Source: Eledone cirrhosa (taxonomy: Eukaryota). Taken from it: DNA of 64,000 nucleotides. The stretch's first letter is position 1. The number at the start of each line of letters is the position of its first letter. This document shows, piece by piece, positions 33,196-44,259 of the stretch. The position numbers and the translations under genes are program-made. The notes below the pieces were generated by a model that was given only the letters and a program-made list of their open reading frames with translations, was not told the DNA's origin and searched no databases. The stretch covers positions 273,606,001-273,670,000 of the forward strand of contig OZ024741.1 in the NCBI GenBank assembly GCA_964016885.1, given 5' to 3'.

Positions 33196-33963
33196 ATGAA
33201 AAATAGGGTGAGAAGAATACTGCTGGTTACACATGGATAACATGTTATAAAATGAGTCCCTCATCAGTGATTTACCAAACGATCATGGGTATTTCATCGC
33301 ATTAAAAATCATATACCTCACGTTGGAGCGATGATAACTAAAATAAGTTATTAGGACAATAGAAACGCGAAAAGCGAGTGAGACAAGTAAACAACACAGG
33401 GGGAAGCTAACCGAAGATGGAAATAAACACAAGCAACATAGTTATTCTTTAAGCATAAGCTGTGTGAATATATGAGCGAGTCAGAAAACAGACCTTTCGC
33501 TAGTGAATCCGGTGTTAGAAAGAATGAAAACCGTTTTCCCAGCGAACGGGAGGAAGAAAGAAGGGGAGAAACAGGGACTGAGTGAGTGGTAGTGCGAGGA
33601 AGAGGTCAGTAGAGAGAAAGAGTTAACTGGCGTGGCAGAGGGGACGAAAGAAAGTAAGAGAAACAGAGAGAAAGAGGGAGCAGTAAGAGAGAAAGAGAGA
33701 AACACAGAATTGCAGTTTGGGTAAATATATGAAAAATAGGGTGAGAAGAATACTGCTGGTTGCACATGGATAACATGTTATAAAATGAGTCCCTCTTCAG
33801 TGATTTACCAAACGATCATGGGTATTTCATCGCATTAAAAATCATATACCTCAAGTTGGAGCGATAATAACTAAAATAAGTTATTAGGACAATAGAAACA
33901 CGTAAAGCGAGTGAGACAAGTAAACAACACAGGGGGAAGCTAACCGAAGATGGAAATAAACAC
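33196..33963 (-). mobile_element. Partial tandem repeat (533-bp unit x ~1.4) flanked by (TA)n; probably Penelope pLTR-derived
   Basis: atgaaaaatagggtgagaag at 33196 and 33729; CTGA(T/A)GA on the minus strand in each unit. Confidence 0.7.
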
Positions 33964-34827
33964 AATATATATATATATATATATATATATATATATATAT
34001 ATATATAACGAAGGAAATGTGGTAAGGAACCAGGTGGACAATAACGCACCAAAGTACTCAATACTTAGGGTAGTAGAGTGGGTAATAGGAACGAGTAGGA
34101 CCCCGACGGCTGAGCTTAAGCCATTTCGACGGCTAATTGAGTCCAGAATTAGCCGTCGAAACGGCTTGAGCTCAGCCGTCGGGGTCCTACTCGTTCCTAT
34201 ATATATACATATATATATATATATATATATATATATATATATATATATATATATATATATATATATATGTGTGTGTGTGTGTGTGTGTGTGTGTGTGTGT
34301 GTGTGTGTGTGTGTGTGTGTGTGTGTGTGTGTGTGCGTGTGTGTGTATATATATCTCTCTCTATATATATATATATGCTTGTGTATCTGTGTCTACATAT
34401 GTATGTAAGCTTTATATTTAGTACAATGGACAACCACTGATTCCAACTATCTGCATTATCATATATTTTGGTTTCTAGTAATTCCCTGGGGAATTGGTTG
34501 ACCAAAAGTTTTGAATAATTGTTTTATATATTTAAATAAAAAATGTATTCTTTCTCATAGATTTCAGGTATTTTTTGAAAGCAAAGCATTGGCTTCTAAA
34601 ATACTGCAATGGGCGCTGCAATGTTACTGTGGGTCCCCTAGGGCCCACTTGCAATTAGGCAACCTAGCCAGTCCGTCAGTGCTTGTGTATATATATATAT
34701 ATATATATATATATATATATATATATATGTATGTATGTATGTAAAGGGTAAACAGAAATAACAACACAATCGGTACAGTATATGGAAGGTATATATTAGG
34801 TTAACGCTTGATATAGCAGGAGGAGGG

Positions 34828-34863
34828 TCTTAAGGTTTCGGACGCTAGTCCTTCATCAGAAGA
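34828..34863 (-). ncRNA. Minimal hammerhead motif with a stem III mutation; mirror copy at 43183-43218 (+)
   Basis: tctt CTGATGA a ggac-tagc-gtcc GAAA CC TT aaga. Confidence 0.55.
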
Positions 34864-35415
34864 AACAATGAGAAATAAAATAGATTGAGGGGACCGGCGG
34901 GATGGAATTGGAAAAAATGTCTTTAGATAAAAATAACAGGTCCATTCATGTTGACATCTCTTGCAAAACTGTTGGTGCTGGCATTTTGTGCATGATTTAT
35001 TTTTGATGGCGTGCGTCTACCTGAAATGGAAAATAAACCGTTTTGTAAAAAGAGCTATACTTGAGCACGTACGTAAGCATGTGTTTGTGTGTGTGTGTGT
35101 GTGTGCGTGTGTGTATCTGTGTGTGTGTGTGTGTGTGTGTGTGTGTGTGTGTGTGTGTGTGTGTGTGTGTGTGTGTTATTATAGGTCCGTACGAAGCTAA
35201 GAAGAATGTGTGTGTATATGTGAGTAATATATATATATATATATATATATATATATATATATATATATATATATATATATATATGTAAAGTTATATTTAA
35301 AATTGTTGGGTTACAACTAGTAAATATTTATAACTGATATAAAAGCACTCGACAAATACTTGGAGTATATTTACAATATTAAATAAATGGAAAACTATAT
35401 TTATAAAACCATATT

Positions 35416-41033: not shown

Positions 41034-42562
41034 TATATTTAGTTTGATTTATATTTATATGAGAACTAGCCGATAAATCTTTTGATTCCTAAATCTTTGA
41101 TTCCCTCTTTTTACTGTTTATTTTATTGTATTTATTTTTATTTTTATTTTTTATTTTTATTTTTATTTTTATCTAAACATTCCTCATGAAAAATTAAGCT
41201 ACCCTAAAAGCCGATGCTCCAAATTTTATGAATTAACCTTACACTTGATAAACTTATATATTAAATATAGGAACATATGTAGACATTATTGGACATCATA
41301 ACCTTTTTTTTTTTTTTTTTGCGATATTCCTTGCTAGATGTGATTTGATAGATAATTTTTGGCTTTGTCTTGTAGTGAACTTGGCAATATATTGTCAATT
41401 AACCTTGAAGGGTTGTTCTTTGTGGTTTATTTTTTATTTTTATTTTTATTTTTATTTTTATTTTTATTTTTATTTTTATTTTTATTCTTTTAGTATTGTA
41501 GTATTCTATAATATTTTTATATTTTTATTTTTTTTATTTTTTATTTTTTATTTTTTATTTTTTATTTTATTTTATTTTTATTTTTAATATTTTTATATGT
41601 AAAGTTTTAATACGTAATAATTTTAAAACATAGTATTTTTAATATGCAATATTTTTATTATGTAATATTCTTTCGTAATATTCTTTTTTAGTTTTCTATT
41701 CTATATTTTTATATTTTTATATATTTTTACTTATTATCATTATTATTGTTATCTCTGCTTATAATATAATATATATTTTCGATTAGTATATTGAAATCTG
41801 CTCTCTATTTCTGCTTGATAGATAATCTTGTAGAGTAATCGCAAGAATAATAATACGCTCAAATGTTTATGCCACATTGAGAATGTTTTCCGGTAACTTT
41901 GAATTTGCGGAGTGAATCAGTTGGATTCACATAGACATATGAATTTTTTAAAAAACTAAACATAAGATAATGAATTTTCACGCATTGTGAATACTTGTTT
42001 CATTCAGGAATACTGATATTTACAATATAGTGTAAGTTTTATAAATACTAATACATTAAAACATAGGGTTTTCTACGCCTCGAATATGTCTGGCTATTTT
42101 TAAATTTTTCTCTCTCTATATCTCTCTATATCTCTCTATATCTCCCTTACATTAATACTTGAGCTAAATAAATAAATAAATAAATAAATAAATAAATAAA
42201 TGCATCATTGATGCACTTACTCAAAATGACCTCCCACTACCTAATTTTTCTATATCTATATTTATATATGTATCTATCTCTATTTCCTCTCTCTCTATAT
42301 ATATATATATATCTCTTTCGGTCTCTTTACATGAAGCTCTTCGCTTTATCTATTTTTCCATCTCTCTATTTTGTCCCATGCATTTCTTCTTTTTCTTCTT
42401 TTTCTTCCTTTTCTTCGTTTCGTCTTTCTTTCTTTCTTATTTCCCTCTTTTCTCTCTCTCTTTCTTTCTCTCTGTATTTTCACTGCTAGAGTGAACCTCT
42501 TCAAATGAAGTTGATGTTTATTACGGTATGTCGAATATATTTATCTATAAAACTGTTTATAT

Positions 42563-42630
42563 TGTATTTTGTCTGATGAAGGCATAGCATATTGTTAATA
42601 TGATATCCCCGAAATATATATAATGAAATA
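42563..42630 (+). ncRNA. Type I hammerhead ribozyme in the inverted pLTR
   Basis: CTGATGA at 42573, GAAA at 42611; mirror of 35416-35482. Confidence 0.7.
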
Positions 42631-44259
42631 AATATGGTTTTATAAATATAGTTTTCCATTTATTTAATATTGTAAATATACTCCAAGTATTTGTCGAGTG
42701 CTTTTATATCAGTTATAAATATTTACTAGTTGTAACCCAACAATTTTAAATATAACTTTACATATATATATATATATATATATATATATATATATATATA
42801 TATATATATATATATATTACTCACATATACACACACATTCTTCTTAGCTTCGTACGGACCTATAATAACACACACACACACACACACACACACACACACA
42901 CACACACACACACACACACACACACACAGATACACACACGCACACACACACACACACACAAACACATGCTTACGTACGTGCTCAAGTATAGCTCTTTTTA
43001 CAAAACGGTTTATTTTCCATTTCAGGTAGACGCACGCCATCAAAAATAAATCATGCACAAAATGCCAGCACCAACAGTTTTGCAAGAGATGTCAACATGA
43101 ATGGACCTGTTATTTTTATCTAAAGACATTTTTTCCAATTCCATCCCGCCGGTCCCCTCAATCTATTTTATTTCTCATTGTTTCTTCTGATGAAGGACTA
43201 GCGTCCGAAACCTTAAGACCCTCCTCCTGCTATATCAAGCGTTAACCTAATATATACCTTCCATATACTGTACCGATTGTGTTGTTATTTCTGTTTACCC
43301 TTTACATACATACATACATATATATATATATATATATATATATATATATATATATATATATATATATATATACACAAGCACTGACGGACTGGCTAGGTTG
43401 CCTAATTGCAAGTGGGCCCTAGGGGACCCACAGTAACATTGCAGCGCCCATTGCAGTATTTTAGAAGCCAATGCTTTGCTTTCAAAAAATACCTGAAATC
43501 TATGAGAAAGAATACATTTTTTATTTAAATATATAAAACAATTATTCAAAACTTTTGGTCAACCAATTCCCCAGGGAATTACTAGAAACCAAAATATATG
43601 ATAATGCAGATAGTTGGAATCAGTGGTTGTCCATTGTACTAAATATAAAGCTTACATACATATGTAGACACAGATACACAAGCATATATATATATATAGA
43701 GAGAGATATATATACACACACACGCACACACACACACACACACACACACACACACACACACACACACACACACACACACACACACACACATATATATATA
43801 TATATATATATATATATATATATATATATATATATATATATATATATGTATATATATAGGAACGAGTAGGACCCCGACGGCTGAGCTCAAGCCGTTTCGA
43901 CGGCTAATTCTGGACTCAATTAGCCGTCGAAATGGCTTAAGCTCAGCCGTCGGGGTCCTACTCGTTCCTATTACCCACTCTACTACCCTAAGTATTGAGT
44001 ACTTTGGTGCGTTATTGTCCACCTGGTTCCTTACCACATTTCCTTCGTTATATATATATATATATATATATATATATATATATATATATATATTGTGTTT
44101 ATTTCCATCTTCGGTTAGCTTCCCCCTGTGTTGTTTACTTGTCTCACTCGCTTTACGTGTTTCTATTGTCCTAATAACTTATTTTAGTTATTATCGCTCC
44201 AACTTGAGGTAATTTCGAATGAGACTCCATATACACAGTTCACTTCAGTTATTATTTAT

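Follow-up and report, generated by a model that had tools for sequence, protein, structure and literature searches.

How does a retroelement insertion come to carry an inverted copy of the host DNA beside it, and does it do so habitually? The question is raised by a Penelope-like element in a 64,000-nt stretch of the Eledone cirrhosa genome (assembly GCA_964016885.1, contig OZ024741.1, positions 273,606,001 to 273,670,000; hereafter the window), in which the element is followed by an inverted, truncated copy of itself that runs on into a reversed copy of the adjoining flank. A preliminary description of the locus proposed that the cDNA had folded back, primed itself and been extended past the insertion point into the chromosome, which would make the element a generator of kb-scale palindromes and flank duplications.

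Anatomy of the locus

Self-BLAST and pairwise alignment gave a single inverted match between 33847-38129 and 44211-39901 (4,264 aligned bases), of which 2.85 kb is element and 1.44 kb is flank (Table 1). The alignment bears out the arrangement described earlier, with an inverted copy that starts at 39901 opposite 38129, shares ATA at the centre and continues as the reverse complement of the flank; the right limit of 44211 was correct, and the left limit lies one base further in than the proposed 33846. The pLTR is directly repeated at 35279-35929 and 39253-39903, with a unit length of 3,974.

Table 1. Features of the mirror-image insertion, in window positions.
Feature	Position	Strand	Remarks
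Original host flank F	33847..35282	+	Old repeats and microsatellites, (TA)n target at end; copied to give the duplicate
83-nt 'tail', bounded by the family's two 3' end points	35283..35365	-	Unit positions 3891 and 3974
Full 3,974-bp Penelope-like unit (left arm)	35283..39256	-	Tailed 3' end abuts (TA)n
Hammerhead-like core (CUGAUGA...GAAA) in pLTR	35416..35481	-	Stems judged by eye
Intact 737-aa ORF	36997..39210	-	RT (YRDD), CxCX5C linker, C-terminal GIY-YIG endonuclease
Upstream partial unit (5' pLTR)	39257..39903	-	Begins at unit position 3328, as at locus C2:203.3 Mb
Central head-to-head junction	39901..39903	.	3-nt overlap (ATA)
Inverted 5'-truncated right arm	39901..42763	+	Unit positions 1128-3974; tail at its end, atypical
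Inverted duplicate of host flank 33847-35282	42764..44211	-	
Outer junction to far-side chromosome	44211..44212	.	Without (TA)n

A 244-bp segment of the flank (33722-33965) recurs 533 bp upstream (33189-33432, 97%); what had been described as a 533-bp repeat is this shorter segment at a spacing of 533 bp. As had been noted, the left arm runs on in register (with 33314-33432) beyond 33847 and the right arm ends at 44211, which identifies the left arm as the original. The duplicated flank is locus-specific: among the best 40 of 4,012 candidates in the 3.0-Gb assembly, the piece 34400-35080 has a full-length match at the two arms only. No other family copy that we examined carries this flank, which supports the preliminary description in treating it as locus-specific. 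It contains a hairpin-type non-autonomous repeat (34085-34200 and, in the duplicate, 43856-43971), and similar hairpin repeats adjoin (TA)n at several other family loci. The first 27 bases past the outer junction (from 44212) are unique in the assembly, and no template for the first bases beyond 44211 was found inside the window. Long degenerate minisatellite arrays lie elsewhere in the window (14716-17556, 52026-53003 and 21783-22944), the first two being related at about 71%.

The arms differ by nine gaps and no substitution, every gap falling in a microsatellite or short tandem unit (2, 4, 14, 2 and 2 bp in the flank part; 9, 23, 4 and 6 bp in the element part). The differences in microsatellite length and the 9-bp indel reported earlier are among them, the indel at 36293-36301. 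Each arm carries a derived length change of its own, a 9-bp duplication absent from every other copy on the left and additions of 23 and 6 bp on the right, which suggests real divergence after duplication rather than one molecule read twice. The absence of substitutions here (0 in 2,074 unmasked bases of the element, against a family mean of 62 in 59,876) is also common at other family loci. One private allele is common to both arms and the pLTR; the arms share private alleles at 18 other loci too, so this test does not discriminate.

Identity of the element

In the ORF, the RT (YRDD at aa 352) precedes the GIY-YIG domain (aa 615). Since Naiads bear the GIY-YIG endonuclease in front of the RT (Craig et al., 2021, PMC8557442), this order rules out the Naiad identity suggested by the preliminary description. 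The same paper gives as diagnostic of the Hydra clade the motifs DKT, RWK, a CxCX5C linker in place of CX2-5CxxC, and CxxC and CxH around a conserved E and N, together with absence of CCHH from the endonuclease (EN), a hammerhead ribozyme in the pLTR and a preference for (TA)n; its supplement lists Hydra-1_Obim, from an octopus. Our ORF carries DKT at aa 118 (DKG modified), RWR at aa 37 (RWK with a conservative K to R change), CNCRDRSKC at 596 (CxCX5C), CDLCAE at 694 (CxxC) and CKH at 721 (CxH), and the 737 residues contain no match to a CX2-5CxxC linker. As to CCHH, the ORF on its own shows a single C inside the GIY-YIG core and a single H shortly after. The candidate hammerhead in the pLTR has the core boxes and stems that are plausible by eye; its MFE fold is not canonical, and it has no match in Rfam, a scan of which returned only microsatellite matches to mir-297. 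A Pfam scan of the ORF returned no family, and a protein atlas puts the ORF among GIY-YIG/RVT clusters (0.96-0.98). The element is a C-terminal-endonuclease Penelope-like element and, by its DKT, RWR, CxCX5C, CxxC and CxH motifs, probably of Hydra type.

The family is young and large in this genome, the ORF region occurring at 98-100% identity in at least 40 places and exact tail-(AT) junctions numbering at least 1,487. The window also holds, at 131-357, a diverged fragment (74%) of a related Penelope-like RT region.

Arms and tails across the family

We read 120 family loci, namely 80 best hits (56 retrieved by queries without the tail and 24 by queries with it) and, from contig C1, a series of 40 tail junctions that follow one another. 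Head-to-head arms are present at 93 of them (65/80 and 28/40), and arms stop at either of two fixed points, which are separated by 83 nt. At 84 of the 93 head-to-head loci (57/65 and 27/28), one arm is tailed and the other untailed, for instance at L148:3667-7509, L168:2631-6200 and L187:2602-6523, where the ends lie at 3974 and near 3891. The rest, this locus apart, have an odd, gapped or cut end; none of the 93 has two untailed ends, and two tailed arms are found at this locus only (1/93). No divergent pair of tail junctions less than 15 kb apart was seen by eye among the first 100 of the 1,487 tail-(AT) junctions.

Among 35 loci with single-unit arms, a script scored the tailed arm as the shorter one in 18 cases, of which 16 remain once two near-ties are set aside. 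Neither arm can be a copy of the other at these 16 loci, because the short arm holds an 83-nt tail that is missing from the long arm and the long arm reaches further 5'. Together with the one-tailed state of 84/93 loci, this argues against the fold-back self-priming of the preliminary description as the general source of the family's arms, and the usual palindrome likely arises by priming on both target strands.

Measured against the family, the centre of our locus is ordinary. Overlaps of 0-5 nt occur at the centre of 34/65 head-to-head loci and the median difference in arm length is 1,985 nt (57 loci), so that a 3-nt overlap and a 1.77-kb spacer are no evidence of fold-back. The outer junction is not: (TA)4 lies within 30 bp on both sides at 57/61 loci, whereas 44212 lacks it, and target DNA was therefore probably lost there. 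Single-arm insertions account for 15 of the 80 best-hit loci, double-arm insertions being commoner by about 3.5 to 1.

Several loci share one 5' start of the upstream partial unit: that of the window (39903) recurs at L055-L056 (C2:203.3 Mb), and C1a, C3c and L194 have a common start at position 3178-3179. These shared starts point to fixed RNA 5' ends of donor copies, not random truncation. Many MITE-like insertions of about 480 bp are nothing more than two pLTR ends in inverted orientation, each of which starts near unit position 3693-3699 (L216, L223, L226, L239, L240, L243, L244, L247 and L249), which suggests that a short RNA species served as template.

Flank duplications at other loci

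A kb-scale inverted flank copy occurs at 1 of 64 best-hit loci, the present one (L177 having been left out as mis-chained), and at none of 28 loci of the C1 set, in which L214 was not anchored. With 1/92 loci affected, the idea of a general generator of kb-scale flank duplications finds no support.

Smaller duplications do exist. At 2 of the 15 single-arm loci, an inverted duplicate of 49-100 bp of upstream host DNA lies right at the 5' junction and is centred on (TA)n. One, C21a (L088:697-834; G000:C21:26.779 Mb), has 49-bp arms with letters private to the locus, and its inverted duplication is absent from 39 other scored copies of its flank repeat; the other (L166:3515-3718; G000:C1:357.736 Mb) is a 204-bp palindrome unique to its locus. 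Both look like fold-back of an unprimed (TA)n end, and none was found among the 11 single or irregular loci of the C1 set. At C7a (L034:8460-8588, L035:7699-7830; G000:C7:90.92-90.93 Mb), the insertion lies between a direct duplication of about 130 bp; its right arm stops within the tail (position 3910), leaving a shortened tail, with a 3-nt microhomology.

A palindrome at the 5' end of C5b was rejected as an insertion-linked duplication, being instead a multi-copy hairpin repeat, and palindromes beside the 3' ends of seven loci, which look like older hairpin repeats, were left uncounted. The two flanks of L247 have a 44-bp match (91%) at a distance of 70 bp from the ends, which we presume to be a repeat common to both.

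Origin of the flank copy

The right arm bears the tail plus the flank, and its outer part was thus copied from already integrated DNA; the polymerase responsible and the timing of this copying are what we infer below. Our preferred reading, to which we give not quite an even chance, is that two-strand priming and joining at the centre took place as usual, after which host repair synthesis switched to the left arm and was end-joined to the far side. The enzyme would nick both (TA)n strands and prime one cDNA on each, one at the tail start site and the other 83 nt upstream, a step proposed because of the 84/93 loci and of work in vitro (see below). The two cDNA 3' ends would then anneal at the centre through 0-5 nt. 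The growing strand may, in the course of fill-in or when a break arose later, have left the second cDNA for the first arm, identical over 2.76 kb, overrun the homology by 1.5 kb, come off and been end-joined at 44212, a joining that would have cost the far-side (TA)n and some length of target DNA. The lack of substitutions between the arms, although common at other loci, slightly favours a wholly copied arm over such a template switch.

For this one locus, the fold-back mechanism of the preliminary description is a serious though less likely alternative. The second strand would have gone unprimed, and the run-off cDNA 3' end would have annealed to itself by 3 nt. Either the RT or a polymerase of the host would have extended it through the element and on along 1.44 kb of flank that had been resected or displaced, with end-joining to the far side as the last step. 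Both junctions would then stem from a single event, the 3-nt overlap would be accounted for, and the pLTR start position common to another locus is what a run-off end would leave; single-arm insertions, moreover, exist, two of them with fold-back duplication of host DNA at (TA)n. Those two, however, centre on self-complementary (TA)n, whereas here 3 nt would have to hold a 1.77-kb loop; double-arm loci outnumber single-arm ones, and the centre junction cannot be told from ordinary ones. In L1, moreover, inverted duplications accompany small hairpins and large hairpins accompany inversions (bioRxiv 2024.12.14.628481, section 9). A template switch and cDNA self-priming yield an identical end product and are inseparable by sequence; it is on the base rates, the large loop and the L1 link that we prefer the template switch.

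An assembly artefact, in which a reversed left arm was spliced in by a chimeric read, or by the path that the assembly took across the 2.76-kb inverted repeat, perhaps from the other haplotype, appears improbable. The zero substitutions between the arms would suit it, and the sequencing data give it some room: the best runs contain 0.79-0.80 of the words of 44093-45400 (7 runs), and no contig of runs X2-X4 covers 44174-44233 at 100% likeness, although the undisputed part of the flank is equally blank, which makes this result uninformative. Over 44093-44730 the alignments of X1-X4 contigs are swamped by a SINE, within 44440-44730 contigs of X2-X4 match without differences at a depth of 4-7, and the RAD run X5 aligned no reads on 44174-44233. 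No empty allele was found: the assembly contains no second copy of 44170-44735, and no paralog of the flank repeats links F to the far side. An artefact would nevertheless require two separate junctions in a window free of N gaps, and length differences of 9, 14 and 23 bp with derived alleles on both arms are unexpected of one molecule read twice. We are confident that the mirror-image structure with its flank copy at 33847-44211 is real.

Reverse transcription of a read-through transcript (element plus 1.44 kb of flank) re-inserted at its own 5' end, a local 3' transduction, would explain tail plus flank in the correct orientation, and Penelope elements can carry host DNA (PMC3846280), but this route is very improbable. 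The cDNA would have to be primed at a site other than (TA)n, begin 1.44 kb beyond the two start sites of the element and hit a target lying precisely at the 5' end of the donor, and the flank is on no other copy examined.

To return to the template switch after two-strand priming, the flank copy is likely a rare slip of DNA repair rather than part of the element's routine mobility. A wider generalization, of which we are doubtful, would be that the insertion of Penelope-like elements proceeds through two cDNAs primed asymmetrically, from the tail site on one strand and the upstream site on the other, and that when one side fails the element's machinery or a break copies host DNA in inverted orientation; some 2-3% of germ-line insertions (3/120 here, one of them kb-scale) would then duplicate flank, the RT itself carrying synthesis past the insertion point.

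The locus is valuable as a molecular fossil that records the repair of an intermediate in Penelope insertion, and the control set is more useful still, through its near-strict rule of one tailed and one untailed arm and its tails on shorter arms. This family-wide asymmetry argues against self-priming and for two-strand priming, and it provides a direct prediction for an existing in vitro system. With at least 1,487 junctions of a young family in one genome, the phenomenon can be counted.

Comparison with known systems

As Penelope anatomy, the palindrome is of the textbook kind. Truncated copies in inverted orientation and a tail on one side have already been described for Penelope-like elements (PMC8557442), and our family agrees with the Hydra clade of that paper in having the RT before GIY-YIG, DKT, RWR (RWK-like), CxCX5C, CxxC and CxH, and in its (TA)n targets, partial tandems with pLTR, inverted 5'-truncated copy and tail at one end only. 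Its unit is longer (3.97 kb, against generally under 3 kb in Hydra), as is its tail (83 nt, against the 30-40 bp described). The present locus has the pLTR tandem and inverted 5'-truncated copy typical of EN+ Penelope-like elements, but in place of a tail at one end and different flanks it has a tail at both ends and the same flank (1/93 loci). A kb-scale inverted flank copy is seen here and goes without mention for the Hydra clade in the parts of PMC8557442 used. The literature searched, a scope with most subscription papers outside it, yielded no paper on a flank-duplicating Penelope arm or on Penelope twin priming. A self-priming model has been proposed for head-to-head Penelope repeats (Arkhipova et al., 2013, PMC3846280), which resemble ours in their head-to-head arms and in the small palindromes at some centres; the model misfits our family, in which the tail is on the shorter arm in 16/35 cases.

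The flank copy, rare as it is, belongs to a type of event known for L1, in which adjacent host DNA is likewise duplicated in inverted orientation through self-annealing or template switch and end-joining (bioRxiv 2024.12.14.628481). L1 small hairpins primed by TA/AT resemble C21a and L166. The L1 cases are somatic, with inverted duplications on the reciprocal end and small hairpins, whereas the event described here is germ-line, lies on the primed side and includes 2.85 kb of element.

The closest biochemical parallel is the Poseidon PAc protein of Anolis, which in vitro nicks and extends both strands, has two RT start sites, both downstream of the hammerhead, by which the tail is defined, and is a predicted dimer (Frangieh et al., 2024, PMC11167929). 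Its choice of start site is reported without a strand difference, whereas the arms here use different sites in 84/93 loci. The two arm end points and the one-tail rule of our family fit the two-strand nicking and extension from two RT start sites seen in that system.
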